A stretch of DNA of 60,069 bases, counting the filler, from Asterionella formosa (lineage: Eukaryota), in NCBI GenBank assembly GCA_002256025.1. It is 9 parts of 9 records of this genome, joined end to end, with 100 filler letters (N's around TTAATTAATTAA, not from the genome) between each part and the next. Parts side by side here need not be neighbours in the genome. Positions count along the whole stretch, not along the records: positions 26,778 to 33,361 come from NKIB01012666.1; 8 more parts are not named here. The stretch is one strand, 5' to 3'. Shown here piece after piece: positions 734-56,520 of this stretch. Under the pieces are notes generated by a model. It made no database searches, was not told the origin of the DNA, and was given only the letters and a program-made list of their open reading frames with translations. The translations under genes were made by a program, and so were the position numbers. How positions within the stretch are numbered: position 1 is the stretch's first letter; every line of letters starts with the position of its first letter.

Positions 734-3700
734 ATGGCAGCAACTGTTTCCTATACCCCCGGGCCTCATGAGCAGGTGAGCGTAGAGAAATTGATTTAGA
801 AATGAATGAGAAGCGGACAGGACGCTCTGGGAAGGGAGGCTTCCAGAACAAACGAATGACATGAGTTGTCTGTACAGGTAGTTTGGCACTTCTCGGCGAT
901 TTTCGACGAAATGGATAGAAGCGAGTGTGCTAGGCTTGCATCTCCCTTTCTGAAATGAATCATTCTACACATGTGCTAACTTTGGTGTGCTTCACTCCCA
1001 TGTAGGCGTACTATCAGGGGTTGTTTCAAATGGCCGATTCGACCCGAAGCGGCAACATTACTGGTGGAGACGCAGTCTCCTTCTTCTCTCGATCCAAACT
1101 GCAAGTCGATACTCTGAAGAATATTTGGACAGTGGCCGATCAACCTGCCACTACCACTTTGGACCATAGAAAGTTTGCTGTCGCCATTCGTCTGATCCAG
1201 CTTGCTCAGAACGGTCAGAAGGCTCAAGGAGCAACGCTTGCTGCACCTCCAGGTGTGGCTCTTCGCCCAGCCTTTTTCGAAGGAATCACCGGTGTCGCCC
1301 TTCCAGCTCCTCCTGTAGAAACGCCAACTCTAGCCCATCCACCCACTCAGCAACAGCAGGTGCCTCCGGTTGCTGGACCACCTAGATCACCGATGCCACA
1401 GTATGCTCAACCCCAGCCCCCGCAACATGCACAGCCATCGCCGTCGCCATGTCAGCGAACACCCAAGCCACAACATGCAGCTTCACCATTGGCACACCAG
1501 CAGATGCAAGTACCGATTCCTCCTATGTCTGCTCCTGCACCCCCTGTTATGTCCACCGCATTGACGCCCCAGGATCCATACACATTGACGCCCCAAGAAC
1601 AACAGCGCTACGAGGCGCTTTTCCCTCAGTATCAAAAACCAGATGGATTCATTTATGGAACCGAAGCGGTTGCTCTTTTTTCGAAGTCTGGCTTGTCAAC
1701 AGAAAACTTGCGTGATATTTGGAACATGGTTGACATTGATCCTGTTGATAACAGACTGGACAAATTGGAGTTTGCAATGGCGATGCACTTGATTGTCTGC
1801 ATTTCTAAGAAAAATTTGCCATGCCCATCCAAATTGCCATACTCCTTGAAAGTCTTGAAACTTGCCGCTAGCGAGACTTCCTCAGCACCAGCACCGGAAC
1901 CACTACCAATTATGCCGACACTTAATCACTCGGTGCCACCTTCTCCTGTGAGGATGAGCGTCCCACCTCCACTTACCCGGACGCAAGTACAGACAATGGA
2001 CATTTCAGATGCGTTTGAAGGATTAAATGCTGGAAGTACTTTGCCCCCTATTGCTGGGTTCGGGGGCTTCGGTGGCACTCCATCGTATGTCCATGGTGCC
2101 CCGGAACCTACCCGAGCCCCCGTTGTTGAGACAGTGGATGATGAACCTTTGCCCTCACCCACTATGAGAGGAATGTCCACTTTTGAATCTGGTTCTGGAG
2201 CTTCTGCTGTCATCACTCCGCCGGAACCTCCCAAGACAACTCAACAACTTGCAGCGAACTACAACTTAGGCGATACTCACGCGGAGCTCGGCAAGCTCCA
2301 GGTGATTCTTCAAAAGCTCCAGGCTGAAAATATTTCGCTGAAGGCTCAAGTTGGCGCCATGACTGAAGAAGAGAAGGATGTACAAAGGCAGATTGGAGCT
2401 ACCGTTGAAGAAATTGCGAAACTCTCGAGTGACCTTACTATTCTTAGAGCTCAAGTTCTCTCCGCAAAGTCGAAACTTCTCGAATCCACTTCTGAATTAC
2501 AAGCAGGAAAGCAAAAGATAGGGTGAGTTCATCATTTAACAAGTGCTGAATTTTGTTTTTATATTCCCATCTCACAATTCCTTTCTCTTTCAAGAGTTCT
2601 GACTGATTTGATCTCCGAAACGAGGGCTACAAAAGATGCCATATTAACTGCTGATCATGATATCAACGACGCGATATCACACCCAGTGTCAAGCGTTGCA
2701 CCTGTTTCATCGAACAACTACGAGCAAAATTTGTTCGGATATGATTTGGCTCCAGCACCAATGGCTGATTCTGGCGGTAGTTTTGGATCTGGACCACCAG
2801 CTCCTGCCAGTTATGAGGAGCCAGCGGATATGTGGGGTGCTCCGGGTCAAACTTCAACGCCAAGATCTGCCCCTTTTATGCCATCCATTCCAGCGCCACC
2901 ATTTGAAAGTGGGACGACCTTGTCCCAAGTGCCAAGTTACGAAGAGGATGGCTTAATGGGAGGTCTGTTGGGAAGTGCTTCTGGAAGCCTTGCACCCACC
3001 CCAAATAACTATAATGTCAGCGCTCCTCCGGTTACGACGACCCTTTCCAGTGAAGACGTTGGAACTTTGAAGAGTCAAGCCTTGGCTGCTGAACATGCCG
3101 TTCGTCAATCTGAAGAAATGTACCTCACTCTCCATAACGAAGCGGAGAAGCTACGACAATCGGCTGATGCGGCAGAAGCCGAAGCCCAGGCCTTACAGGA
3201 GAAGGCGTCGAAACTGGGTCGTGGACTTGGTGGCAAGAAGAAGAAGGCCATAAAGGAAGCAGAAGTCGCCTCGGCCGATGCTGCCGAAAAGCGCAAACAT
3301 TTCATGGAGTTACAAGGACAGGCCGATAACGCTGAACGTAATATTCCTGAGATGAAACGAAAAGCTGAGCAATTACGTCAACAGTTTGAAGAAGCCGAAT
3401 TAGAATTCGCCTCTGCCGAATCAGTCAAGTGGAGTCAACCTTCGGTTCCCGCTCCCTCGGGTGGAAATGCACTTGAGGTCCCGGTTCACAAATCCTCTGG
3501 AGGTTACCCTAACTATGGGTTGGACTCGAGCACCGCGGCTCACGCGTTTGGAAAAGCAGTTACTGGTTTCGGCAACGGGATGCAAATAACAGACTACAGT
3601 GGAGGGTTTGGGGCACCACCACCAAATTATGGTGGTGGATTCGGAGCTGGCCTGATGCCTGAGGTGTCTTCTGGTGGAGGTGGTATCCCAACACCTCCTC

Positions 3701-3771
3701 GAGTCGCCTCTCCAGCACATGATCCATACGGTAGCCTTGAGTCCAGCGATCCTTACAGCAATCCTTTCTGA
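734..3771 (+). CDS. EH-domain (Eps15/Ede1/Pan1-like) endocytic adaptor; 3 exons 734-775, 1006-2522, 2595-3771
   Basis: Two EH domains (LKNIWTVAD...FAVAIRLI; LRDIWNMVD...EFAMAMHLI), Pro-rich linkers, coiled coils and a C-terminal NPF. Introns 776-1005 (GTGAGC...GCTAAC...TAG) and 2523-2594 (GTGAGT...AAG) join the ORFs in frame (PHEQ|AYYQGLF; KIG|VLTDL). Confidence 0.88.
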
Positions 3772-3961
3772 GCTGTTCTGGGTAATTTCTTTGAAACTGG
3801 CTTTTTCTTTCCTTTTTGAAATTATATTAGAGCCTATTAGCTTACTATACTAAAGTTTTAGTACATCCAGCTTCGTTTTCTTGCTGCTTCATCTTCATCA
3901 CTAACAAGCAACACACAGTTGATTTCTTGAAAGAAACAAAAATTCCAACGTTTGCGATTGT

Positions 3962-6232
3962 CTACCGATCTAAAACTGCATAAATCTCTTTTGCTATGGC
4001 CTTCGCCTTGGCACCATGAGGTGAAGCTGCCATTTCCACCCTCCCAATCATACCAAGCTCGATTGCAGCTGCCTTGGCTTCTAGTCCTATCATCAGGACT
4101 GTTCCCAGCGCTACCAAGACGCGAATCATGGCTTCTCCGTCGTACAACTTGGCCTCCAGGGCAGAATTGAGTTGCGAGACGAGGTTTCGCTGTGCTGAGA
4201 CATTGGGTACGTCTGCGTGGGAGTTCAAGTATGATGCAAGATTAAAAAACACTGTCGCTATCGATAGTCGAATATTCTTGTTTCCCGAGTTCAGGCACGT
4301 TTCAGTGTATTGGAGGATCTTATCCATATTTGCAGCTGCAGCTTCCAACGCACCCGATCCTCCCTTGAAGCAGTTGGCAACCAATCGAAGCGTCAACATT
4401 GGGACAGCAACGGCTGTTGTTCCTTCCAATTCTCTCTCGCATTGTTTGAATGACAATGTCAACATGGTATCCCAGTAAGGGAAATTCTTTGCAGCATCTG
4501 GGTGCAGGACAGCTACCCTGGCTAAATCGAGAGCAGGAAATGCATCAGTTGGCGCCCAGGAAACCAAAATATCTTTGATAGCTCGCAGTCCTTCTATGGA
4601 CACATTACTAGAGTGGTATCGATTGGTGACCATTAGTGTCCTCATTAAAGACTGAATTGCTTCAAAATCCTGGTCCGATAGCTTGCCATTTTCTTTAAGT
4701 TTGGTGGCCATCTTGTCGAAGGACGTGGCCTTTGTCAATTCAAACGACTTGTAGAATCGAATGGGCAAGTGTTCGTACGTAACCGGAGCGACCACAGTGC
4801 TAATTGCATTGATCCCGATTGTGGGTGCCGATTGTCCAACACGCTGTTGAATATAGTTCCCGATCTGGGCCAAGTAATGCTGAGGCAAGACGTGTGCGTC
4901 GATAAATCGCTGCGCCGCCACAAATGGATTCTCACCAATGTTGTATCCAATTTTCAAATTAGCAACTCCACCGCCAGCTTGGTCAACTTCAATGGGGAAA
5001 ACATGATCATACTTGATTCCATCTATCGTGCCAGAATCCTCAGACGACCCGAGCACTTCGCCGACTTCAATCCATGTTCGCGACACCATACTCCATTGTG
5101 AGGCAATAGCCTTGCCTTGTTTTTGAAAGAGTTGGACTTGCCCTTCCGACTTGCCGTGTTGAAGAGCATTGAGCTCCCATTTTGGCAGTTGAGCTATTTC
5201 GTCTTCAGTCGGTCCCGTCGATTGCTTGTCAAGGGCGGCTACAAGCGAGCTGGTAAATTCCTCCCGAACATCCTTCGAGGCCATGCGATCACTCGATTGT
5301 GTAAAAACTCTCAATGTTCCGTCCTGACAACAAGTGGCCAAGTCATTTTCTGGCAACGAAACAACATTCCACACTGAAGTAGCATGGCGAATGATTTGGT
5401 AGTCCGCTCCGCTCCACACAATGACATGCCCATCTTCGGCAGAAGCCGCCAACATTTCGCCAACCTTGGTAATGGATAGCAGCATCGGTATATCTTGAGC
5501 AACGAACGATAACGTCGTTAGGCATTCACCTGTATCGATCGATCGTAGCTTAACGGTTCCGTCATTGGAAGACGAGGCCAACATCCCATTAGCAGTCATG
5601 CAGAGAGCACGAATGGGCCCGTCATGATCGTTTGCAACTTGGCTTATCATTCGCTTCTCTCCCGTCTTTATATTTACGCTCCAAATTCGAATGGTGTGAT
5701 TTGAAATGGAGTTATTCTGAGCAATACCAGCGGAGCCAGTGGCCAGGGATAGAATGGAACCTTCTCTGGAAATTCCCGCCACACAAACAGTGTTTTCATG
5801 GCCCTCCAGATTCGCCACCATGGCGTGCGTGGTAATGTCCCAAACTTTCGCTGTTCCGTCCCAAGATCCGCTGATGAGATAGTCTCCCCCCGCCCAGGAT
5901 AGACTCGTTGCTGCCTTGTCGTGTCCGGTCAATTCCGCGAGAAGTTGATGGGAATGCGAAAAAATGCGAACGACACCATCCCTGCATCCCGTCACGTAAA
6001 CCTTTTCATTGGAGAGTATCGCCGTCACGTCATGATCATGCTGGTATTCAATAGCCAAGATCTCTCCAGTAGGGACCGCGAACTCCCATAGAGATCCTCC
6101 TTGGGTTCCGGCAACCAAGCGGTAGGCCATCGAATCCGACGACGATGGCAACACACAGCAGCAGCGGATTGCTCGGCCGTCGCTGGAAAACGAGTGCGAC
6201 AGTTCCCAGTCGGCTTGCATCGAATGTAGCAT
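3962..6232 (-). CDS. PLAA: Phospholipase A2-activating protein / Doa1 / Ufd3 (WD40-PFU-PUL)
   Basis: WD40 repeats (SGSWDGTAKVWD), PFU signature (YDHVFPIEV...LKIGYNIGENPFVAAQRFI), PUL (FPALDLARV). ATG at 6232 or 6220. Confidence 0.93.
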   Translation of the reverse strand: MLHSMQADWELSHSFSSDGRAIRCCCVLPSSSDSMAYRLVAGTQGGSLWEFAVPTGEILAIEYQHDHDVTAILSNEKVYVTGCRDGVVRIFSHSHQLLAELTGHDKAATSLSWAGGDYLISGSWDGTAKVWDITTHAMVANLEGHENTVCVAGISREGSILSLATGSAGIAQNNSISNHTIRIWSVNIKTGEKRMISQVANDHDGPIRALCMTANGMLASSSNDGTVKLRSIDTGECLTTLSFVAQDIPMLLSITKVGEMLAASAEDGHVIVWSGADYQIIRHATSVWNVVSLPENDLATCCQDGTLRVFTQSSDRMASKDVREEFTSSLVAALDKQSTGPTEDEIAQLPKWELNALQHGKSEGQVQLFQKQGKAIASQWSMVSRTWIEVGEVLGSSEDSGTIDGIKYDHVFPIEVDQAGGGVANLKIGYNIGENPFVAAQRFIDAHVLPQHYLAQIGNYIQQRVGQSAPTIGINAISTVVAPVTYEHLPIRFYKSFELTKATSFDKMATKLKENGKLSDQDFEAIQSLMRTLMVTNRYHSSNVSIEGLRAIKDILVSWAPTDAFPALDLARVAVLHPDAAKNFPYWDTMLTLSFKQCERELEGTTAVAVPMLTLRLVANCFKGGSGALEAAAANMDKILQYTETCLNSGNKNIRLSIATVFFNLASYLNSHADVPNVSAQRNLVSQLNSALEAKLYDGEAMIRVLVALGTVLMIGLEAKAAAIELGMIGRVEMAASPHGAKAKAIAKEIYAVLDR

Positions 6233-6599: not shown

Positions 6600-6699
6600 N
6601 NNNNNNNNNNNNNNNNNNNNNNNNNNNNNNNNNNNNNNNNNNNTTAATTAATTAANNNNNNNNNNNNNNNNNNNNNNNNNNNNNNNNNNNNNNNNNNNN
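6600..6699. other. Artificial contig spacer (N44-TTAATTAATTAA-N44); also at 13296, 19991, 26678, 33362, 40046, 46723 and 53397
   Basis: Identical 100-nt linker with stops in all six frames; contig lengths fall from 6599 to 6573. Confidence 0.99.
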
Positions 6700-7731: not shown

Positions 7732-8778
7732 TGGCACCCGGTACCAGCGCTAGCGAATTCAAGAGATAAGCATAAGCTCTGTCAGTCAACCCCCCGTTTT
7801 CCTCCCGAATTTGACTTTATCGAGAATTTGGGGGTAGGTATACCGGTAGTCAAAATTGAAACTCTATAAAAAATATTGAATAAGCAATTCCCGCTCCAGC
7901 TATCATCTTGCCATTTGGGTACATATTAGTAATTTTTAGGCTCTAAGTTATATTTATTTTAAGGGGCAATATGGGGCACATCGGATTTTTCGGCATTAAA
8001 ACTGCCGATTTTAGCATGACAACAGAATAACGATAATATTCAAAGAAATGGTACAACAAGCGTAAAACACACGAGAATGATTGTAACAACATGCAACATG
8101 CCAAAAGAGAAATAGAAAAAACTGTTTTGGGTTTGAAATGAAGTAAAGAATAGCAGTTTTAATGGAAACATATGCATTGTGACATTGTAGTACTTACACA
8201 GGCAATTGAATTTCCATCACCACACAATCAAAGACCGAAATAAGAAGGAAAGAAGCTGAACCCAATTTAGACCTGCATCGTTATGTAGCGTAGATGATCT
8301 GGTTGCTACAACCATACACATCGCTGTAGTAGCCTGACACAAGTTGCAGTCCTTCCGCCCACAGTCGTTCCTCCTACCAAACAACAACCCTGATCATAAT
8401 TCCATCTCAATCCATTCTGATTGAGTATGATCACCAGGCTGCTCCAGCACAAACGGGAATCCCTCTAGCTGAATATACATACTAGTAGCTTGTGATACAA
8501 ACTCGAAGTAGAAATGTAGCAAAGCGCATTAGTACAAGAAAGCATTGCTTGGCGGCAATATTGACATCATGGTAAACGACTATACAAATCAACAAATACG
8601 ATCAAGAACGGCATAATACCACATCTTCAAAGAGTATTCTGATTCCGACATTTTGGAGGCCGTTGAAAAGGCCAATATTGTCGAATTTTTGGACGATGAT
8701 TGTTCAACGTTGGCAGGGATTGAAGAAGAATTCAAAAACATAGGTATACTTTGTCATTTATCCAAAAAGTTATCTTTC

Positions 8779-8898
8779 GGCGAGAAAGTGCAAAAAGGAG
8801 CTTCGATTTTTTACTAGGCCGAATAAACCGTTTAGCCAAGTAAAATTCACTATTTTCAGCATAGAAAAAACCGAAGTTCTTTTCTGGAATTTCTCGCC
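8779..8898. repeat. Imperfect ~34-bp inverted repeat; dispersed copy of the element at 56388-56501
   Basis: 8770-8905 aligns by eye to the reverse complement of 56378-56515. Confidence 0.8.
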
Positions 8899-8989
8899 AG
8901 ATCCTATATCCTGACGATATGTAGCATTAACCTTTACCCCTACTTTGATCAATGACTGTACCCTGATACCAGTTTAAATATCTTTGAGC

Positions 8990-11028: not shown

Positions 11029-12502
11029 AGTATCTAACTAGAAGTAGCAGTATTTGTTGAAGATATGAGCTGATTTATTGATTCTTATGTACAACTCATT
11101 TCCTAAGTTGACATCAAAGTATACAATAGGTGTTAGTCGAGTTCTCTCATTATTGAGTTCTGATATATTTGATGTAACCCTAACCCTATATATATCTGTA
11201 TCGATGTGTGGCATGTACTTGAATAATAGTATAAGAACCTCGTCCACGATCATCCAAAGTAGTAGGATTATCCAATAGTATTAAAATCTCGTCACCCACT
11301 TTGTAATCATAAGATCGACGACGGAAATCAACACAACGTAAACGTTTGTCAATTATCACTTGTCGACGTTGATGTAGTATCAATTGTAAATCTGTAATCA
11401 AAGGAATATTTAATATCATATCACGTTGAAAAACCCATGCGCCTGGTGAAATACGTAATATACTATGAATAGTAGCTCGAGCTGCATAAGATGCAGTTGC
11501 AAAACACGTATCAACAATATTTTGGGCTTGAAATTCATTCATTGGAGAATGAGCCTTTAATACAACTCGTAGACTATTACTGATAGATTGATGTAAACGT
11601 TCACAGATAGCATTTGCTTGTGGATTCTTGACTGTAGCAGTCACATCTTTAATTCCATTCAACAAAAACATGTGTAAGAAAGGAGCACCAGTAAATTCAC
11701 CTCCATTGTCATATATACAACGTTCTAGATGGGGATATCTGGCTAACCAATCATTTTCAAATTTCATTGCAATATATTCTGATGTTTTGTTATTGATACA
11801 TGAAATTTTTGCCAAATTGGTAACTGTATCAATACAAGGTAGAGCACGAAATTCAATTGCTTGAGTAGCCAGCCACTATTATCTTCCATGGACCAATTAG
11901 ATCTACTGAGACTTCTGACCATGGTAATAACAATGCATTCCTGGGTGGAAGTTCACCAAAACCAGTACCAGGTAATTTTGTACGCTGACATGCTTCACAT
12001 ACTCTTACAATATGTTCCACTCTTGCTTTCAATGTAGGGTGATAAAAATGTGTAGCAATTGTAGCATTTAATCTTGTCATAATAACATGAGCTAACATCT
12101 GATGACACCAATTAATAATAGGATCCAATAATGATGTAGGAATAGCAATACGTCAAGTATCTCCTGGATTCTTCACAAAACATATTAAAAATATATCATG
12201 AAAATTGATAGAAGGAAATTTTAACGGATGTGTTTGTTGATTGAGAATCAATTTTATATCCAGCAATTGTCTATCATGAATTAAATTATAATCCAGAGGA
12301 TATTGAATATTGTCTGTCAACATTGGATGATTAAGGAAACAGGTAGTAAGCAAAGGTTCTTCATCTAATTCAATTGAAAAGGTAAAAATAGATGTTGATG
12401 CTGGAGATTTCGGTCCCATATCATCCCCCACCAAAGACTCAAGCCTCATGAGGCGAGAGATAGAATCTGCAATAGCATTGTCAGTCCCTTTCACATAGTG
12501 AA
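11029..12502 (-). mobile_element. Ty3/Gypsy fragment: RNase H end, integrase (zinc finger + rve core) fused to a partial LTR
   Basis: HQMLAH...CEAC zinc finger, VSVDLIGPW, IYDNGGEF, NPQANAICERLH; frameshifts and stops. 11029-11210 matches the LTR at 16107-16301. Confidence 0.92.
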
Positions 12503-13295: not shown

Positions 13296-13395
13296 NNNNN
13301 NNNNNNNNNNNNNNNNNNNNNNNNNNNNNNNNNNNNNNNTTAATTAATTAANNNNNNNNNNNNNNNNNNNNNNNNNNNNNNNNNNNNNNNNNNNN

Positions 13396-19990: not shown

Positions 19991-20704
19991 NNNNNNNNNN
20001 NNNNNNNNNNNNNNNNNNNNNNNNNNNNNNNNNNTTAATTAATTAANNNNNNNNNNNNNNNNNNNNNNNNNNNNNNNNNNNNNNNNNNNNATACCTTTGA
20101 TCATAGTAACATATTGATCATATGATGAACAGTGTCGTTGATGAGAAAATTAAAGATCAAAATTTCTTTTCAAGAATCAGGATCAATTGATCTTAAAAAT
20201 ATGATCAAATGATCCTAAACACATGAGCATATTCAGTTTCCGCTGCACTATTGTGGTATTTCCATGATAGAAATAATTCCCAGCAAGTATACAGTACTAC
20301 CGGTAGTAGGCCATATGAATTTTGGTCAATATGTCTATAAACATAAATGTATGATTTCGACCATTTGAAAAATTGGTGATGACTCCCATTTATTAGCTAA
20401 GGGGCTTAATTAAATCAGCCACTTACTTGTAGGTACAAGAATTGACACAAAACAAATTGAAAAAATTCAACAGGTCGTCGAAAACTATGAACTAATCATG
20501 CATTGTATATATTTGAATTATGTATAATCAAAATTGATATTAGTATACACAGGATGTGCCGTATAATGAGCGTGTTTAAAACTATGCAAATGTTCAACTA
20601 CTATATATACATTTAAACTTTTTACAAATCTTTATATACATGTATTCATGGCTGAAACATTTGAAATCATGTTTTCATGTTGCTTGTCATGCATACACTT
20701 TGCT

Positions 20705-25447: not shown

Positions 25448-26369
25448 TTATTCCTCCGCCTCGGCCTCTTTCATGTATTTTTCTACTGTCCAGCGAAAGA
25501 CAGGGTTGGATTTGGCGTCTTGCAACATCTTATTGAATTCATCGGAGTGCAACCCGTGCTTCTTAACAATTTCTTCTGCTTGTAAAGGAAAGGCCTCAAC
25601 GACGGCTCGAACTCTAGGGTTCAAAAACGGAAGGACAGCTGGGTCGCTAAGATTGACGCCTTGGGGAAGCTTATCGACGCGAAGCCTTCTAGTCAACTTT
25701 GCCATTTGCTCGCCTCTGAGAGCTTCAATTTCTTGGATAGATTCACAAAACATTTGAACCCGCTGACGCCGAGTAGCTTTGAGGAGCGACTCCGAAGCCG
25801 GATCTTCAATAATCGGAATGCGGTTCATTTCTACGGCGGCAGCCATGCGGTAAAGGTAAGCTTGCTCCATAACCTGACATATTTTGTTAGACTTAAATGA
25901 TTCTGACCAAAGCAAAGTAAGCCTCGACGTATTGATGGATACTTACTTTGTCTTTGAGATTAGGATCTTGGTTCACTTGACGTCCAAGCTGGTTGAATTG
26001 ACTGACCGACATTCCAAGCGCCTCTACAATCTTGCTTGAGTTTAAAACGTATTCAGCATTCGCTCGTTTCTCGTCTTCTGTTTCAGTCTCCTTCTTGCCA
26101 AACTTGGGTTTTCGACCGACTGCTTTCTCTTTCATTTTGCGCAAGCCCTCCGTCGCGGCCAAACAGGCGGCATATCTATCATACTGAGAATCTTCCGGAC
26201 CAAACAAGGTTGGCATAAGTTCTGGCCCCTTGCCGGCGATAAGTGGGATTTCAGTCATGAATTCCGCTCCACCTCTGGTTTGATGCAGCCATCGAAAAGA
26301 ATATGGTATTACCATCGGGGAGGCTTGTGATGATCCCAGTAGAACCAGGAAAGCGAAGCGACGGATCAT
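25448..26369 (-). CDS. Signal-peptide protein with two DUF4168-like helical repeats; intron 25874-25946
   Basis: Hydrophobic N-terminus followed by TRGG; IVEALGMSVSQFNQLG...DPNLK and IVKKHGLHSDEFNKML...NPVFR. GTAAGT...CTAAC...CAG intron joins KDK|VMEQ. Confidence 0.75.
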
Positions 26370-26777
26370 TCTATCGGTCCATAAAGTTGGTATTAATTTT
26401 GATGTGTTGCTTTGTTAGTGGCCAAATTCTTGAGGACTGCTTCCAAAATGTGCGTCTGTTTTAGGATCGTCGACTAGGTAGCAGGTACCTGGTAGAGTAC
26501 CCGGTAGCAGCACTGGCATCGGTAGTCTAACTGTTACCTGCTAACCAGGTATTGTATTGTTAAAGTGAGCTCATCTACGTACCGGTCGGTACTTTGGACT
26601 CCGAGTCAAACGATTCGAATGAGTCAACTTTGATATACCAAGCTCTCATCAACCACATTTCATTGTCCTGGACCCCCNNNNNNNNNNNNNNNNNNNNNNN
26701 NNNNNNNNNNNNNNNNNNNNNTTAATTAATTAANNNNNNNNNNNNNNNNNNNNNNNNNNNNNNNNNNNNNNNNNNNN

Positions 26778-27010
26778 TTCCAATGTCAGGTCCGAAAATT
26801 CTCTTGGCAATCTTGATATCATTGGTTATCACTGGATTGGTTTTGATCGTATCCATGCGAATTATTGCCTTGAAACTGTTAATCGGTTGATGGCATGCAT
26901 GCCCAAGGCATGAAATAGATCACGAGCTCGCTTGGCTCTCTCAACTTGACGTTCAGTGTAGAATGTTTTGTTTTCTTCAACTATTTTTAACATTAGAGCA
27001 TTCTCAACCT
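26778..27010 (-). mobile_element. Ty1/Copia (CoDi-type) pre-integrase fragment
   Basis: VEENKTFYTERQVERAKRARDLFHALG, then after a frameshift FKAIIRMDTIKTNPV...IAKRIFGPDIG. Confidence 0.8.
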
Positions 27011-27883
27011 TAATGAACAATCTAAATTCTGTTTGAGTTTGAAATCTGCAGAATTGAGGTCTTACCAGGAGCAGCATATCTGAAGTTAGGAAATATACCT
27101 CGCCTCTTGTTTTATTTTATAACAAAGGCAAGATTTTAACTTGTTCATATTATATGGATCAAAAGCTAATTTTAGCTCCTTTTTTGAACATGTATATGTA
27201 GGTACAAAATGGCTATACCGGTAAGTTTCAGTCCGCATGAAGGTTGCGGCCCCGCAGTTACTAATTGCGAGGTCCGTTATTTCCCAAAAAGTTTTATGAT
27301 GTATGTCAATCCACACATCACGTACCAGTAAAAAAATAGTTAAAGGTAAAATTAGCTTTCACCATTACGACCACTTTGCATATGCTTAGATACTGTCATT
27401 GCTCGACTTAGGGGCATGATCTATATGCAGATAGTATGGTAAGGACCCCATTTCTGGAGAGAAGTGGCAGTTACGTATCATAGATTCGTAACTACCGCAA
27501 AAATAGTCAAAAAAGGGGCTACAAAGCTTTTCAAAAAATCTACGATACATAACTGCTACTTCTCTCCAGAAGTTAACTCCTGACGTTATAGGGTATACGG
27601 CTATCTATTATAATCGTCATGAAACCCCGTAGATGTAGAGCAATCCCCTTCCAAAAAGTCGACCCGATCGGCTTTTTCAACAGTAGCCAAAATACTGGAA
27701 TCGGAGTTTGTACGTGCGAAAACGTTCTTGTAAACATAGGAGTCTTGCATAGGTATATTTGACTGTATAATTCTCTGTCCAAAAAGACTCCATGGTAAGT
27801 TCCCGCATCACTTAACATATTCTGATTGGTTGAATTGAATTTACTCGCCTGCTCCATACTGGTCTTGTAAAATTACGCCAGCC

Positions 27884-28862
27884 TCACTTGAACCATATAC
27901 CGGTATTAGACTCATCTGTAAAATCAGGATTACCAGTAGTTTCATGTACAAGTTCAACACGAGGAGCTGCTTGCATTTTGCTGTTGTTGTATTGACATCG
28001 TGCATTTGTCCTTCTCAAATGATCGGCATGTCCGCAATGTTTGCATTTCTTGGGAGCGGGAGATTGCACATCCAGAGTTAGACATACCTCTTCGTTCATT
28101 GCCTCTCTCATTGATTTTTCTGTTGCAACTACTTCAGCTTCGCCTACTCGTTGCTCCAGATTATTAAACCTTCCCTTCCTGTTCCAGTAGCCGATTAGCA
28201 AAGGTAAGGAAAGGGACGAGCATATTATATCAGCGTCAACCGGACTCATTCCTGCTTCGTGACAACCAAGAACAAACATGTTATTGATTTCAAAGTGTTC
28301 TGATTGATTGCCTTTCTCATAATTTCCTTCTTTGTTTTTGCAAATTACAGGTTCAATATACTTTCTTTCATCACATTGCGCACAGGCAGGTAATTGAAAT
28401 TCGGCTAGCAATGCCAAGAAATGGACTAACATTGTCGGCAACAATCAGCCTTGTTATCTGTGAAGGAGATTCCGATGACTCTGTGCTGTCAATGAAACTA
28501 TCATGGCTTTCAACGAATTGATTGTATTTATCTTCTATTGATCTTTTTACTTGACATTTTTGGATAAGGAATGTTTGTAAATCTGCCATTCCTTGTTTGT
28601 ATGCAATATTATACGCTTGCAATCTCAACTTTTCACTGCATTTACTACAGCTACTGTTGCTCTCTATAAACTGCTGCAATGATTCTGCAGACACTAAACG
28701 ATGTCCGCTCAGATTCATTACGGGTGGTGTGATTTCTGTTGTATCTGAAATTTTCTTCGTTTCGTCAAACCAAATGGTTTCATCAGGCGCCTCTTTGCGT
28801 GTGCGCCGTCCTTTGCCACCATTTGCAATCAAGGAACGGAGACGGGTACCTGAACCTTTCAT
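27884..28862 (-). pseudogene. Frameshifted N-terminal part of a Kolobok / 'Mutator-like' transposase
   Basis: GHRLVS...CSKC, GIASRISITC, then FEINNMFVLGCHEAG...ICSSLSLP...SMREAMNEE in the next frame; no intact catalytic core is visible. Confidence 0.7.
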
Positions 28863-29052
28863 ATTTCTGAAACTAGTAATGATGTTATAAATTTTCTTTA
28901 ATTTTTTAATGCCAACGATTGTTGAAAGGTTTGAATATTTATTGATGGTTTTTAATGTTATAAAGGCTGAGAATATTTTCAGCAATGCGATGACAATGAC
29001 TAGCAAGTTCAAATATAAACAAACTTATAAAATTAATAGATGACACTAACAG

Positions 29053-29450
29053 TCATTTGCTACTATGCTTAAACGTTTTAGATACTGGTTGGAAACCAGT
29101 GTAGTCTTCTTTGTGATCCTTATTCTTGAGAAGCGAACGAACCCCCTTCAGGCAACAATCTTGAAGTTCCTTACGGATGCCTTTCCCAAGTGAGCCACAG
29201 AATGTCTTGACCAGAAACTTGTATATAAGGTTTCTTCCTTGGCCCGGCGGGATAACATCTTCGTCAAGTCGAAGCTGAACCAAGTCTGCTTCCATGTATT
29301 GTTCAACTAACTCTTCCATCTCGTCCCATCGACATTGACACTCTGGGCATGCAAAGTCACGCACAGCATTCGTAGAAGATGCGATTCCCACAGCCTGCAA
29401 CTTCAGATTTGACAATGTCACGATCAATACAAGTGGGGCACGGAACATGA
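29053..29450 (-). CDS. P2X7 cytoplasmic-ballast-like (KolX-like) accessory ORF; 5' end uncertain
   Basis: CPECQC...RNLIYKFLVKTFCGSLGKGIRKELQDCCLKGVRSLL...YTGF resembles the R..AY......G.LG.G.R...P.C....IR......YTGF motif. Confidence 0.7.
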
Positions 29451-30721
29451 TTGTATTGATGACTACCAGTACATGCTCGAGGTATAATATATAGTGGCTA
29501 GTATATACATGTGCTCTGGTGGGGAGTAAAATTATATCTACATTGAGCAAGGTAGATATAACATAAACGTCTTCATTCGTTTTGAAATGGAACTCTATCA
29601 ATGTGGCGCCATTTTCTACTTAGTTTAAATATTCAGGGAGATACTTGCATCCTTGGGAATACACAGAAAAAATTCCCTGTTCCACACCGTTTTTACAACC
29701 CTATCGATTTTTTCTCCAAACTAGGGTTAAGCCCAGGGCCGCAACCTTAAACTAGTATTTTGATTGGTATGCATGTATACCGGCATACCCGGTAGTATTT
29801 GATTACATACTTTACATATTATTAGTCTACTCCGTACGAGGTTATCTATCTGTCCAATATAACTTGCAAAGATTATGGGAACACTCAGTGCCAAGCAGCT
29901 TATTTTAGGATGAATTACGTAGACTACATACCATCTTTCTACATGAGGGTCGGCTTACTCGAAAAATGCCTTTTTATCAGTTATTTAGACGTGAGTATAA
30001 ACTTGCAATCACTCAAGAAATTATTAGCATTTAAATAAACTAATCGAAACCAATTTAACATACATGTATTCATTGAGTACGTCTACATTTCATCGCCAAA
30101 TGTTGTTTTACATTGGCCAGCCACTCAAATATTTGCAGGAAATGGAATAGCGCAACTATGATATTTATAATATGAAGAGAATAACAGTTTTTCCATACAC
30201 TCTCTACGGTTGTTTCATTTACATTGACCATACAGCTGTATATTTAATGGTTCCAATGATCAAAACGAGCAAATCATCATTATCTTCCTTCGCATCGCTC
30301 ATCACCACTTTCGTGACCTCTTTCGTGGTTGCACAATCCACAATTAAAGTCAAGTTGCCGTTGTTCTACTGTTATGACCTACTTCTAATGAATGTTGAGA
30401 ATATTATGTGGTTCGGAGAAAAATGGGTCCTCATACATCCGCATTTTTCTCGAGATGGCCAGTAGGGAAAATCGAAAAGCCCAAAAAGAATTTTTTTTGA
30501 TACATAGTTGACAATTTTAATTTTTCTCTCTCTATATATATAATATACAATATATCTGTAGCTTAGGCCAAGCCACACAATAAGAATGCAATTAACCCGG
30601 GGAAAATCGTAAGAGTCTAACTTGCCCAGGATAAACTTTGAGAATCGATGCAACTTTTAATAAGAGCTCCGAAATCCATTACCAACATACTAGAAAAGGG
30701 TTTAGATAGGTAGCAAAGCAT

Positions 30722-31248
30722 TCATTGAAGTTGACGTTGAAAACTCTCGTTTGGTAAACAATCACCTAGCCACAAAACCATCGCTTCATCAAAACTATCA
30801 TAGGATTGATCTTCTGGTTGTACCTCCACATTTAACCATTTCGATAAGGCAATGTCGGTCAAACACCTTTTAAAATAGTAGGAAAAGGTATCTTCAGGGG
30901 TAAAGCACATGTGTTAGCCATGTCACGAAATTGACTCACCCCAATCCACAATGCTTCCACAAAGCTTCCATCAATAATATCTTGATCGAACGATTCAAGC
31001 CTTCCACCGGTTAGAGCAACTCGAAATGTCTTAGTCTTGATGGTCGATTGATTGTAATCTTTGATCAAAATAATGACAGAAACCCTTGTTGAATACATTA
31101 CCATGTTTGTTCTATTCTAATTGGACTCTTTTTGAATTCAAAGTGAAGTATCTAACTAGAAGTAGTAGTATTTGTTGAATATATGAGCTTACTGGTTGAT
31201 CTTAATGTACAACTTGTTCTCTTAACTGACACCAAAGTATGCAATAGG
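30722..31248 (-). mobile_element. Gypsy 5' LTR remnant (31144-31248) followed by a decayed gag N-terminus
   Basis: The LTR end matches 16107 onward. ATG at 31104, then gag-like helical peptides (FSYYFKRCLTDIALSKW...SFDEAM..WL...NESFQRQL). Confidence 0.7.
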
Positions 31249-31820
31249 TTTTGGATCTGTTCTTATCATTCTGTCACTGGTCGTCATTGGTGTATCATCG
31301 CCGCAGTAAGATCCAAAAATGGTGGTTTGTATCATATTTTTGTATCACCAACGGTTTTTTTGGTCTGATCACCGATACTGGGAGACTCGTCAACATGTTG
31401 TTGTCAACACATTGAACATGTTGATGATTGGCTATTTCTCCATCAAAATGGCAAACGAGTCGCTGTGCCTTTGCGGTCAAAAAATATCTTTGTAAAAACG
31501 ATGCAATAGAAAAAGAAATATAGATACAATAGTATCTTTAAAATTGAATAAGAAATTACGAATCTACAATGTAGAAGAACATTCGTCAATTTCTAGGAAT
31601 GCTAAGCAATAGAACTATTGATTTGTTACAGCAACGAATAAAGCTATGACTGCTAATACGACTACAACAATACTATCATATGACAAAAGTGCTTTCAAAA
31701 GTGGTGTGAGGCTAGACTTTGAAATATAGACGCCATTGGATCAATCGATTGCACCAGTGGTGTTTTCATGTTGCACTGTGTTGCTGATGTTGATTTTCCC
31801 ATCCACAAAATAAATTATAT

Positions 31821-31970
31821 AGTTGGCGCTAGCGTGTGTACAGTTATTTTGTCAGTGGCAATGGACGTGATACATAGCGATCAACAGCTGTATCACTGAT
31901 AAAAAGTTGGCGCTAGCGTGTTTACAGTTATTTTGTCAGTGGCAATGGACGTGATACATAGCGATCAACA
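31821..31970 (+). repeat. 66-bp direct repeat, period 84
   Basis: 31821-31886 and 31905-31970 differ at one base. Confidence 0.9.
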
Positions 31971-32544
31971 ACGGCTGGTGTATTACTTATACTACAGCCA
32001 GCATTGGTCAGGAGTCCTAAAACTGTATCAGTGATACACCCATGAAACACTAGGGTACTGGTACCAGTAGCATTTACACACAGGCTTTGTTACATGATAT
32101 GAAATTTGTTATTATATTCCGGTTATTTTTATTTAGGCTATGCATATGCAGCCATATTACTGCTCAGATATATTTAGATGTTCGTAGCTGGCCTGTCACT
32201 GCTAACAATCCCTGTTACTCCATGATACACTGTGATACAAACTATAGTTAGGGTCGTTCTTATCATTTTTTTTCGTGTATCACGGAATTTGAATTTTTTT
32301 GAAAATGTATCAGCAACGGTAACTCGATTTGAACTGAATTTCATTCATTCCAAAAGTGTCACTGTATCACTAATTTGTGATCACATTGTATCATGGAGTA
32401 AAATGAATCTTCAACGGCAACTGGCTGGCGAAGATCATGTGTATATCCCTCCGGAATATAATGATGGTCTTGATATCAAGCAACAACAAAATATAATTAC
32501 CGGGAAACTAAATATAATATTAAAAACACACATTTGCATGAATC

Positions 32545-33361
32545 ATGTCGTCGCCATTTGATTTACTTGATGATAATGACGATGACAGTAGTGATCTTGA
32601 TTTCTTCTTCCTCTGTCATTTAGCTAAGGAAGCAGAGGAAAAAGAACACTCATCCAAACGACAAAGGCGACGCTGTAAACGGCAGCTTCAGTCATCTGAA
32701 CGACGACGACAACGAAGGCACAAGTGGCACCACGAAAGAATCTCCTGGCAATCACATGTCGAGAAACTCAATCACGAGATTGCTTTCGAGAAGACATACA
32801 GAATGTCACACAGAGCATTCAAAAAACTCACCTCCATGCTGGAAATTCAGATTGCAGGGAATTATTCCAAATGTGGCACTTCTGAGCCCATAATTCCCGA
32901 AATTGTGGTAGCCATTGGTTTGCGATGGCTGGCTGGTGGCAGTTACATCGACATTCGTCATGCCTACGGTTGTAGCATTGCTTCACTTTATCGATGTCGT
33001 GATTTGTTCATTGATGCTGTACTAAACTGTGGAGAACTCGAAATTGTTTTTCCAAAAGAAAAAGAAGAATTTATCAAATTGGCTTCCAGCTTTGAATGCA
33101 AAAGCTCAGAGGGCATGATGAGAGGATGTGTTGGTGCTATTGACGGCTTCCTAGCCACCATCAACCGCCCGACTATAGTTGAAAGTGGCAACAACCCTGG
33201 TTCATTTTTTTCCGGTCACTACATGACTTATGGAATCAATGTCCAGGCTGTTTGTGATGCTGACTCAAGATTTATTTATTTTGGTGTAATTGCACCGGGA
33301 AAATGCAGTGACCAAGTAGCTTTTGAACGAACTTCCATTTTCGATCGAGTTGCAGCATTCA
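32545..33361 (+). mobile_element. PIF/Harbinger (HARBI1-like, DDE_Tnp_4) transposase, 3' end cut by contig end
   Basis: FEKTYRMS..AF..L, LRWLAGGSY.DI, GCVGAIDG, GINVQAVCD...RF, APGKCSD. Confidence 0.92.
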
Positions 33362-33494
33362 NNNNNNNNNNNNNNNNNNNNNNNNNNNNNNNNNNNNNNN
33401 NNNNNTTAATTAATTAANNNNNNNNNNNNNNNNNNNNNNNNNNNNNNNNNNNNNNNNNNNNTCTGTCTCACTGCTTGTGCGAGAAGGAATTACC

Positions 33495-40019: not shown

Positions 40020-40680
40020 CTTAATTTTAGATGAAAGAATACCTANNNNNNNNNNNNNNNNNNNNNNNNNNNNNNNNNNNNNNNNNNNNTTAATTAATTA
40101 ANNNNNNNNNNNNNNNNNNNNNNNNNNNNNNNNNNNNNNNNNNNNCGAACTACCTTGTTAATGATTTCCCGTTCCATTCGGGATCGATGGCCATCTTGAA
40201 GCTGTTGAAATAGTCCCATTGGGTCACTATTCTATCCCTATATTTATATGAAGAACTAGATATATTGCTGGTCGTTCAAGGCAAGGAACATTAAGTCTAC
40301 AGATAGTGGTATTTGAGATAATTACCGGAATAAGATGATGTTGGTAATCAAATGACACCATATATCTATTACGCACACACTGCTTGATCTGTTGATACTT
40401 TTACCGTGTTACTGGTAGACCTAAAGTTGAAACAGATAAGTCAAATGAATCTTGTATGTATCTCCAAAATCTGCCCAGTCATGACCTTTTGAGGTTATCA
40501 TGAACACGAATGAATCTTTACTAATATGGGAAATCAATATTTTGAGTCATGTCATGAACATGAGTCAATTTTCTCATACATGACTTAAAAAAATTTTGTT
40601 TGTTTGTTTTGCTAACAGTTAATTCTATCATCTCACTTTATTTGGAATTACCAGTAGATTAATTATTTCAACAACAAACA

Positions 40681-46722: not shown

Positions 46723-47321
46723 NNNNNNNNNNNNNNNNNNNNNNNNNNNNNNNNNNNNNNNNNNNNTTAATTAATTAANNNNNNNNNNNNNNNNNNNNNN
46801 NNNNNNNNNNNNNNNNNNNNNNTTGCTTTGATTCGTGTTAAGTGAAGCAAGACGATACGATGGATTTTCGTGATGTTGTGTCAGTGTAACATGACTAGCG
46901 AACAAGTCATTCCTTCACATTGTTACTGTAACTGCATAGGACAATAAAACAAATCAAACAACGGAATAGTCGGCAAGTTCAGAGTGTCACTAACAGCAAG
47001 GATAGAGACAAGACATTAAGCAAGCACTGCATAGCACAAGATTCAGAATAGAGGAAGGAAAGGGCAAGATAGGAACAATATACATTGAGCCAAGTAGAGA
47101 GAGAAATATTGGGTCGCTGGCCTGTAGAATTATAGACAGCATTGCTAAATTTGATAGTTAAATTACGATCCATTTCAATCTATTTTGAATAATGCTTGTT
47201 GTGATTAGAATTATGATCATGTTTAAGATAGTTATACGATGAAACAAAATTCACATGATGGCATAGAGTTGAGCTGATTTTAGGATGCATTGTATTAATA
47301 ATTTACATTTGGCAATCACAA

Positions 47322-53396: not shown

Positions 53397-53496
53397 NNNN
53401 NNNNNNNNNNNNNNNNNNNNNNNNNNNNNNNNNNNNNNNNTTAATTAATTAANNNNNNNNNNNNNNNNNNNNNNNNNNNNNNNNNNNNNNNNNNNN

Positions 53497-56168: not shown

Positions 56169-56520
56169 GGTTACTGCATTTCAATCCTAGGTTAGAGGTA
56201 GGATTAAAAAATTATATTGATTCAGACTAATCAAACACGTACTTTTGAGGTTTAAAATAATTATGTATATTGCTACTTGGAGCTTTCAACATTGGACACC
56301 CTTTCCATATGCTTAGATACAGTCATTGAACGAAGTAGTGGTATAGCTAGGTCTACTCTACATAATGTCAGTACATAGGATCTGGCCAGAAACTGCAGAA
56401 AGGAACTTCGGTTTTTTAACTATGTTGAAAATAGTGGATTTTACCAAGCCAAATCGTTTATTTGGCCTAGCAAAAAACCGAAGTTCCTTTCTGCAGTTTC
56501 TCGCCGAAAGTTAACTACTG
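56169..56520. mobile_element. Terminal fragment of a second Kolobok-like element with a perfect 30-bp inverted repeat
   Basis: TTAA|GGTTAC start; CATATGCTTAGATACAGTCATTG shared with 27379-27401; inverted repeat 56388-56417 / 56472-56501. Confidence 0.65.

Follow-up and report, generated by a model that had tools for sequence, protein, structure and literature searches.

A decayed Kolobok-type transposon and its cysteine-rich accessory gene in an algal genome assembly

Kolobok transposons are characterized by TTAA target-site duplications (TSDs), a DDD/E transposase and a C/DxxH signature that they share with MuDR (Kojima and Bao, 2022; PMC9587614). As described there, 5'-RR...YY-3' termini distinguish Kolobok from piggyBac, and in almost all Kolobok transposases a zinc finger, with variable first ligands and a fixed later C, lies between C/DxxH and the catalytic E; MuDR, P and hAT lack it. 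A second finger, of CCHC type, follows the first D in a few Kolobok lineages. Kolobok families from the diatom Fragilariopsis cylindrus and other protists are included in the same work; we found no report of a second gene in them. Since the superfamily is already known from non-animal eukaryotes, its presence in an alga is in itself ordinary. KolX, the second protein of Kol0 elements, shows 'clear sequence similarity' to residues 476-595 of P2X7; the authors name it as the likely source of the P2X7 ballast domain. That domain, also termed ZCD, was found in Metazoa only by Rump et al. (2020; PMC7016195). Here we describe an element at positions 27242-29746 of a 60,069-base stretch of the Asterionella formosa assembly GCA_002256025.1, hereafter the window. 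An initial annotation proposed a Kolobok-like transposon carrying a P2X7-ballast-like gene, and the Kolobok features it listed (RR...YY ends, TTAA, KolX) agree with the account of Kojima and Bao. Our analysis indicates that the element is very probably an old copy, non-autonomous and with an internal deletion, of a cut-and-paste family that belongs to the Kolobok superfamily and is present in high copy number in this alga, itself found mostly in freshwater samples. Whether its small gene is related to the ballast domain is a separate question, considered below.

The element is bounded by an exact pair of terminal inverted repeats (TIRs). The 11-mer GGTTGCGGCCC lies at 27242-27252 on the plus strand, the 3' end of the element in gene orientation, and at 29736-29746 on the minus strand, the 5' end; these are its sole two matches in the window when up to one mismatch is allowed. 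In a repeat search of the window, the pair reaches 13 nt with the adjoining AA/TT at 100% complementarity (AAGGTTGCGGCCC / GGGCCGCAACCTT). The termini read GGTTGCGGCCC...GGGCCGCAACC, the GG...CC form expected of Kolobok 5'-RR...YY-3' ends. Directly outside are TGAA at 27238-27241 and TTAA at 29747-29750. Both the exact 11-bp repeats and the unequal flanks had been pointed out in the initial annotation, and both are present. Because at least two matches to the 11-mer (one mismatch allowed) also appeared in 8 of 100 shuffled sequences, the repeat alone is weak evidence, and independent evidence of mobility was therefore sought.

That evidence comes from public sequencing runs. Public runs that match the stretch amount to 20 rows across 14 studies, labeled as algae, freshwater, lake and riverine metagenomes; five of the rows contain at least half of the sampled words. 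Contigs of four runs (X1, X4, X6 and X14; 19,708 contigs in X1) were aligned to window positions 26800-30800 at a likeness of at least 80%, and their depths were summed, a quantity that is not a copy number and to which other organisms may contribute. In X1 the unique left flank (27068-27201) has a summed depth of 1,411, and the bin with the left TIR one of 168,815. Values of 0.6-1.4 million are reached across 27336-27871 and of 18-85 thousand within the coding interior (27872-29479); the final bin ahead of the right TIR (29614-29747) stands at 609,745, and the one that follows at 11,116. Thus, depth rises about 100-fold or more at the left repeat and drops about 50-fold at the right one. The same steps are found in X4 and X6; the coverage of X14 is too thin for clear steps. 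A 188-nt contig of depth 1,033 forms an exact bridge from the unique flank into the TIR. Relative to the unique flank, abundance is hundreds of times higher at the termini and tens of times higher in the interior, which is typical where short non-autonomous derivatives make up most of a family.

The alignments also reveal where individual copies end. Loose contig ends concentrate at two points, 27240 (36 contigs, X1) and 29750 (11 contigs, X6), and the sequences beyond them are diverse, with a consensus agreement of 0.41 and 0.43. Such low agreement indicates many different insertion sites. On the left, the consensus of the loose ends finishes in ...TT directly ahead of the matched AA; on the right, matches continue through the full TTAA to 29750 and then diverge. 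Other copies are therefore flanked by TTAA, and the TGAA of the window copy is a left TSD with one mutated base. The initial annotation had staked its reading on further TIR copies at TTAA sites, and these are seen in the metagenome contigs both by depth and by loose ends. We conclude that 27242-29746 is a mobile, multi-copy unit. Depth peaks in the 3' subterminal part, 27336-27871, which comprises the acidic segment and the hairpin described below; it reaches up to 1.4 million there in X1, 2-8 times the values of the terminus bins. This part may circulate as a separate short element or be common to more subfamilies. In the same runs, DNA flanking the element at 26800-27067, 29882-30149 and 30552-30800 is itself highly repeated, with depths of 100-270 thousand compared with about 1,400 in the unique flank. 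The neighborhood of the element is repeat-rich.

The window copy encodes three open reading frames (ORFs) on the minus strand: a small Cys-rich ORF at 29448..29056, followed by two overlapping transposase-like ORFs at 29012..28371 and 28444..27884. The initial annotation placed the Cys-rich ORF, ending ...GSLGKGIRKELQDCC...YTGF, upstream of the transposase on the same strand, and this arrangement holds. Of 37 candidate relatives of the small ORF, 30 pass E ≤ 0.01; no Pfam domain is found in any of these, and the intact ones are 139-152 aa long. A scan of metagenome contigs with an alignment of the small protein identified eight loci, one of which (L008) was rejected as a false positive, a bacterial-looking contig with only LLKNKDPK in common. 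Locus L005 (5,472 bp) contains a 152-aa ORF at 1167-1625 and, 186 nt later on the same strand, a 791-aa ORF at 1812-4187; L004 (3,784 bp) contains the same pair. Both loci show the layout that had been proposed, a two-gene, TTAA-targeting family with GG...CC ends and the small gene upstream in tandem. The intact 791-aa protein was reached solely through its small neighbor: a HMMER search of 1.84 billion representatives with the window's transposase remnant gave 26 matches, all of at most 282 aa, and none of 588 candidates was a longer form of the window's transposase ORF.

The ends of L005 are comparable to those of the window copy. L005 contains an exact 20-nt inverted repeat whose arms lie 3,890 nt apart. 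Its right end reads ...CTAGGGGTTCAAATGCAGGAACC followed by TTAA, that is, ...GGAACC and then TTAA, or GGTTCC on the other strand. In gene orientation the window element begins with TTAA and then GGTTGCGGCCCTGGGCTTAACCCTAG, and L005 with TTAA and then GGTTCCTGCATTTGAACCCCTAG; GGTT.C...AACCCTAG is common to both. About 55 nt inside the 5' end there is a second TIR-like word (TAGGGTTGT / TTAGGGTTGCC / TTAGGTTGCG), at 29688-29700 in the window, 897-911 in L005 and about 55-75 in L002. It appears to be the real end of the L002 copy, and may be a putative subterminal transposase-binding repeat. Another candidate binding repeat, GCAGTTAC, was rejected: it has 56 matches across the window against 35.5 expected and is too little concentrated in the element.

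Two subfamilies can be distinguished among these loci. Exact copies of the 791-aa sequence are present on 24 contigs, with 159 members in its 90% cluster, and individual variants of the 152-aa protein recur exactly on 58, 22 and 13 contigs. The occurrence of identical sequences on so many contigs suggests that the L004/L005-type subfamily has been active recently. The window copy belongs with sister copies that are 94-97% (L001, L003 and L006) or 91-93% (L002) identical to its DNA. L001, L003 and L006 have internal deletions of their own, lacking residues ~132-428 in L001 and L006 and ~128-494 in L003. The small gene and the transposase ORF lie in the same reading frame in L005 (1167 and 1812, as well as the downstream acidic segment at 4212), L001 (175 and 805) and L003 (1 and 523), with spacers of 186 and ~183 nt, multiples of three. 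Read-through or fusion of the two ORFs was considered and rejected, as in-frame stops interrupt the spacer, four in L005 (including that of the small gene itself) and eight in L001. Given these stops, the common frame is probably a coincidence. Elsewhere in the window, 8638-8950 on the plus strand is a remnant of the L005 subfamily: its acidic tail is 74% identical to that of L005 over 34 aa and leads into a subterminal hairpin region that no TIR follows. The data set therefore contains both subfamilies. At 56281-56344, a 65-nt stretch matches element positions 27354-27417 with 80% identity and probably derives from a short element related to this one.

The 791-aa protein matches one Pfam family, PF20700 'Mutator-like transposase' (E 3.8e-43, 148 bits, residues 145-409). 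We found no mention of PF20700 in the literature searched. By pattern, the protein contains D308; CNVC...HVC (CxxC...HxC) at 347-366; DDD at 403-405; DPSH at 455-458; HLFGCHDYCSETWCP at 517-531 (H517..C530); and QINEAMNN, with NE at 581-582 and E582 as the putative catalytic glutamate. L006 and L003, members of the same subfamily as the window copy, retain DPSH, the zinc motif in the form HHLFDSHEHCNPEWCP, and NEAMNNAV. A candidate zinc motif thus stands between DxxH and the catalytic E, where the Kolobok definition places it, and has the variable first ligands and fixed later C described for Kolobok. TTAA targets, GG...CC termini, DxxH and a zinc motif before E together fit the definition in PMC9587614, as the label 'Kolobok-like' in the initial annotation implied. 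The Pfam name, and the C/DxxH signature common to Kolobok and MuDR, could instead suggest a Mutator-like element (MULE). We consider a MULE highly improbable. The flanks are a 4-bp TTAA and not a TSD of 8-10 bp, and the nine bases on either side of the window copy differ. The zinc motif would be out of place, being absent from MuDR, P and hAT according to PMC9587614, and Pfam lists neither a classical MULE family nor DBD_Tnp_Mut or SWIM for the 791-aa protein at E up to 0.1. A piggyBac-type element, which would share the TTAA targeting and might explain a small protein that resembles the ballast consensus in its C-terminal part only, can be practically dismissed: the transposase matches PF20700 and no piggyBac transposase family at the same threshold, and the GG...CC termini are of the kind that separates Kolobok from piggyBac (PMC9587614).

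Compared with these relatives, the Kolobok-type copy in the window is dead. Its transposase N-terminus, starting at MKGSGTRLRS, is read in frame -2 (28862..28386, minus strand; residues 1-66 of the relative P0031 align here) up to a frameshift near 28386-28392, after which the reading continues in frame -3 (28420..27884). P0031 runs uninterrupted across the break, in agreement with the frameshifted N-terminus of the initial annotation. Frame -3 opens with a segment at 28067-28420 that corresponds to residues 151-270 of the intact 791-aa protein (46% identity, E 8.9e-26) and has a weak PF20700 match. It then passes straight into a C-terminal remnant with the zinc knuckle KKCKHCGHADHLRRTNARC at 27884-28066, to which P0037 and P0053 align, and the homology hits form an N-terminal set and a C-terminal set. 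The jump from residues 151-270 to the C-terminal zinc knuckle means that the whole D308-E582 core has been deleted. The small gene is a pseudogene at 29056-29455 on the minus strand. It lacks its native start, ~105-111 nt present in the sister copies L001 and L002 being absent at window position ~29459; its frame shifts near 29358-29363; and it reads LQDCC where the family has LPDCC. With both genes frameshifted, the start of one lost and the DDE core of the other deleted, the copy is not an element 'moving' a gene, as had been proposed.

Downstream of the transposase ORF, two further features are conserved in both subfamilies. An acidic segment of the form ...TVEKAD.V.FL..D.ST..GF... lies at 27798-27607 in the window (minus strand, remnant ...TVEKADRVDFLEGDCSTSTGF...) and at 4212-4418 in L005; tblastn with the L005 segment finds the window copy at 45% identity and E 1.9e-13. 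In L005 the segment is in the frame of the transposase with stops between, and it may be a spliced transposase exon. A possible 33-nt GT...AG mini-intron is present at 4180-4212 of L005. A long subterminal hairpin follows the acidic segment, at 27439-27584 in the window (minus strand; 48-nt arms, 81% complementary; -67.4 kcal/mol, z -9.7) and at the same relative place, 4415-4617, in L005 (-78 kcal/mol, z -10.8).

Intact members are about 3.9 kb in size and carry, on one strand, the Cys-rich accessory gene (146-152 aa) and then the 791-aa DDE transposase gene, followed by the conserved acidic tail segment and the long subterminal hairpin. Based on these observations, we suggest the following mechanism. 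The transposase would bind the GGTT.C... termini, excise the element and insert it at TTAA, duplicating the four bases. The window copy, in which the transposase is frameshifted and without catalytic core, the accessory gene startless and frameshifted, and one TSD base mutated, is incapable of self-transposition. It could have moved in trans only, like the far commoner short derivatives with the same ends. Trans-mobilization, zinc binding, the catalytic residues (assigned by pattern) and any role of the small protein are what we infer.

Several observations weigh against the assignment to a high-copy Kolobok family. The only Pfam family of the transposase bears the name of another superfamily, and its catalytic residues and DDE core were assigned by eye from a motif pattern. 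Among the sequences searched, no intact autonomous member turned up of the subfamily to which the window copy belongs. The left end of L005 is without its last three bases (the terminal GGT) and without TTAA, and the 5' end of L002 is shorter and preceded by GTTA; a clean TSD is thus not present in every copy. The TTAA of other copies derives from a 30-letter consensus of low agreement and not from a count per copy, and the summed depths carry the qualification given above.

The small protein is encoded by a real gene. Between the subfamilies its dN is 0.32 with saturated synonymous sites, whereas part of the transposase core has a dN of 0.39; the gene is thus under purifying selection, as constrained as that part of the core. 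The Cys-rich protein probably binds zinc. By analogy, its position would be that of KolX in Kol0 elements. The connection between KolX and the ballast domain is already in print and is no discovery here; no paper besides PMC9587614 that joins Kolobok and ballast was found in the literature searched.

Database searches and structure prediction did not recover the ballast homology proposed in the initial annotation. The P2X7-type Pfam family is not listed for the window ORF (E up to 1), for any of 20 members (E up to 10) or for the L005 protein (E up to 0.1), although the presence of this P2X7 C-terminal family in the searched library is unconfirmed. Against the Protein Data Bank (PDB), the single sequence gave no match at E up to 10, and the profile gave nine weak matches (best E 0.19), none of them P2X7. 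A profile search of 5.8 billion proteins found 39 proteins among 1,132 candidates; every one belongs to this closed family, and no Pfam domain is present in any of them. The best ESM Atlas matches, 0.87 for RING-type clusters over the whole protein and 0.77 for RNHCP over the C-terminal part, are below the 0.9 lead level. AlphaFold models, proposed as a check against the ballast, were too poor for use: AlphaFold2 reached a mean pLDDT of 41.1 at full length (16 sequences) and 51.9 for the C-terminal 88 aa (32 sequences). A complex prediction for the 791-aa transposase and the 152-aa protein scored 0.00 in both runs, in which the alignment was not used, and is evidence neither way.

These results are consistent with a small protein unrelated to KolX and the ballast, namely a lineage-specific zinc-finger accessory, RING-like or treble-clef, whose likeness to the ballast is due to chance or convergence. 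We regard this explanation as somewhat probable; it concerns the ballast sub-claim and leaves the transposon assignment as it is. The published motifs point the same way in part. Rump et al. (PMC7016195) give PxWCxCx2C, LCCRx3GxCITT(S/T) and (L/I/V)PSC(C/S)x3IRx2(F/Y)Px5Y(S/T)G. The first is approximated by I-F-C-E-C-C-D-F-x-C, in which the next C comes after 3-4 residues, F replaces W and there is no P. The second is absent: CPECQCRW is followed by DEMEELVEQY..., with no cysteine until FCG/LPDCC. By the defining motifs of the ZCD, the protein cannot be classed as a member. The motif 'LG.G.R', which had been put forward as a ballast signature, is not part of the published consensus consulted here (PMC7016195).

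The third motif is better preserved. The family consensus LPDCCLKGVRSLLKNKDxKExYTG agrees at L, P, C, C, R, Y, T and G, eight of the 12 specified positions. It departs from the motif in having V for I, in the loss of S, F/Y and P, and in a spacer of seven residues instead of five; the window copy also has Q for P. With the P of LPDCC set to P570 and no gaps allowed, equivalents of R546 (in RNLIYKF), Y550, L569, P570, C572, C573 and R578 line up, with V at I577, and Y-T-G follows downstream of R578 after a two-residue insertion. R546, Y550 and R578 are all conserved in the family; R546 and R578 are the two GDP-contact residues reported to be retained beyond deuterostomes (PMC7016195). We scored 18 published ballast position constraints, with 20,000 shuffles per protein. 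The relatives P0004 and P0007 each score 10 of 18, which no shuffle reaches; the window ORF and the L005 protein score 9, reached by 2 and 3 of the 20,000 shuffles, respectively. In a six-frame null of the window (about 120,000 positions), two unrelated positions score 9 and none scores 10. The match is confined to the last ~48 residues. Of the ballast likeness proposed, the C-terminal part stands at 9-10 of 18 positions, and two of the three cysteine motifs are approximate or absent. The resemblance is suggestive, but post hoc and local. An unrelated accessory protein would not readily explain the gapless register, the scores beyond the shuffles, or a gene that occupies the place of KolX in an element of a KolX-bearing superfamily. 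That the small protein is a genuine, extremely divergent KolX/ballast (ZCD) homologue, carried by Kolobok in a non-animal eukaryote, is accordingly a possibility that we hold with some doubt.

The feature itself is of an ordinary kind: a degenerate copy, no longer autonomous, from a Kolobok-type family of very high abundance in the alga. Mild novelty lies in the orphan accessory protein and in a two-gene layout found outside animals: L004 and L005 define a two-gene Kolobok family outside animals that has probably been active recently, and its accessory protein is under purifying selection with no detectable family in the searches described. The P2X7-ballast reading is an open lead and not a result. 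If the protein were a KolX/ballast homologue, the view of the ballast/ZCD as a metazoan invention (PMC7016195) would be overturned, and the ballast would be an ancient Kolobok accessory module that either is older than animals or was carried by the transposon from one kingdom to another. In that case R546...Y550...LPxCC...R578...YTG would be the minimal conserved core, indicating which residues form the core of the fold, with the N-terminal cysteine cluster free to be rebuilt. As a remote relative, the compact 150-aa algal version could also suit biochemistry.

The remainder of the window provides the setting of the element. Eight linkers of the form N44-TTAATTAATTAA-N44, about 6.69 kb apart (6600-6699, 13296-13395, 19991-20090, 26678-26777, 33362-33461, 40046-40145, 46723-46822 and 53397-53496), show that the window consists of nine pieces of ~6.6 kb joined artificially, whose order here need not reflect adjacency in the genome, and thus the real context of the element is 26778-33361 only. 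Long ORFs of the window encode EH-domain, PLAA-type WD40/PFU/PUL, SET, Pin1-type rotamase, NADPH-oxidase-type ferric reductase and GST proteins, which are ordinary eukaryotic proteins; an Rfam search of the window found nothing. On the same piece as the element, an ORF at 32545-33417 (plus strand) that runs into the artificial linker has a DDE_Tnp_4 domain (Harbinger/PIF-type, E 4.6e-09) and represents a different transposon superfamily. Two adjoining ORFs at 25448-26369 (minus strand) each carry a DUF4168 domain (E 9e-13 and 8e-10).

Among described systems, Kol0 (Kolobok-1_XT) is alike in TTAA targeting, RR...YY termini and a DDE transposase that contains DxxH and, ahead of E, a zinc motif. 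It is also alike in having a second, small-protein gene inside the TIRs, the C-terminus of which resembles the ballast consensus. Kol0 is reported from animals only (PMC9587614), whereas the host of the window family is an alga-like protist, and the transposase described here has in addition a CxxC...HxC motif after the first D. The accessory protein differs from KolX in that it has no P2X7 C-terminal family match and no cysteine motif 2, and in its N-terminal Cys cluster, which reads CPTC-x12-C-x5-CxCC-x3-4-CxxCxC. The piggyBac families that encode a protein like the KolX C-terminus (PMC9587614) are similar in TTAA, but neither the transposase family nor the termini here are piggyBac-like. 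The P2X7 ballast/ZCD/Nanor proteins of PMC7016195 share with the accessory protein the character of a small, stand-alone, Cys-rich protein with a C-terminal Y-T-G-F/Y. No sequence-family match to them was detected, cysteine motif 1 is approximate and motif 2 absent, and W559, A549, I/V568 and F/Y581-P582 are not kept here, where two residues are inserted before YTG. The spacing of the R546, Y550, P570, C572, C573 and R578 equivalents is exact, and helices are predicted over both motif-bearing segments in the low-confidence models.

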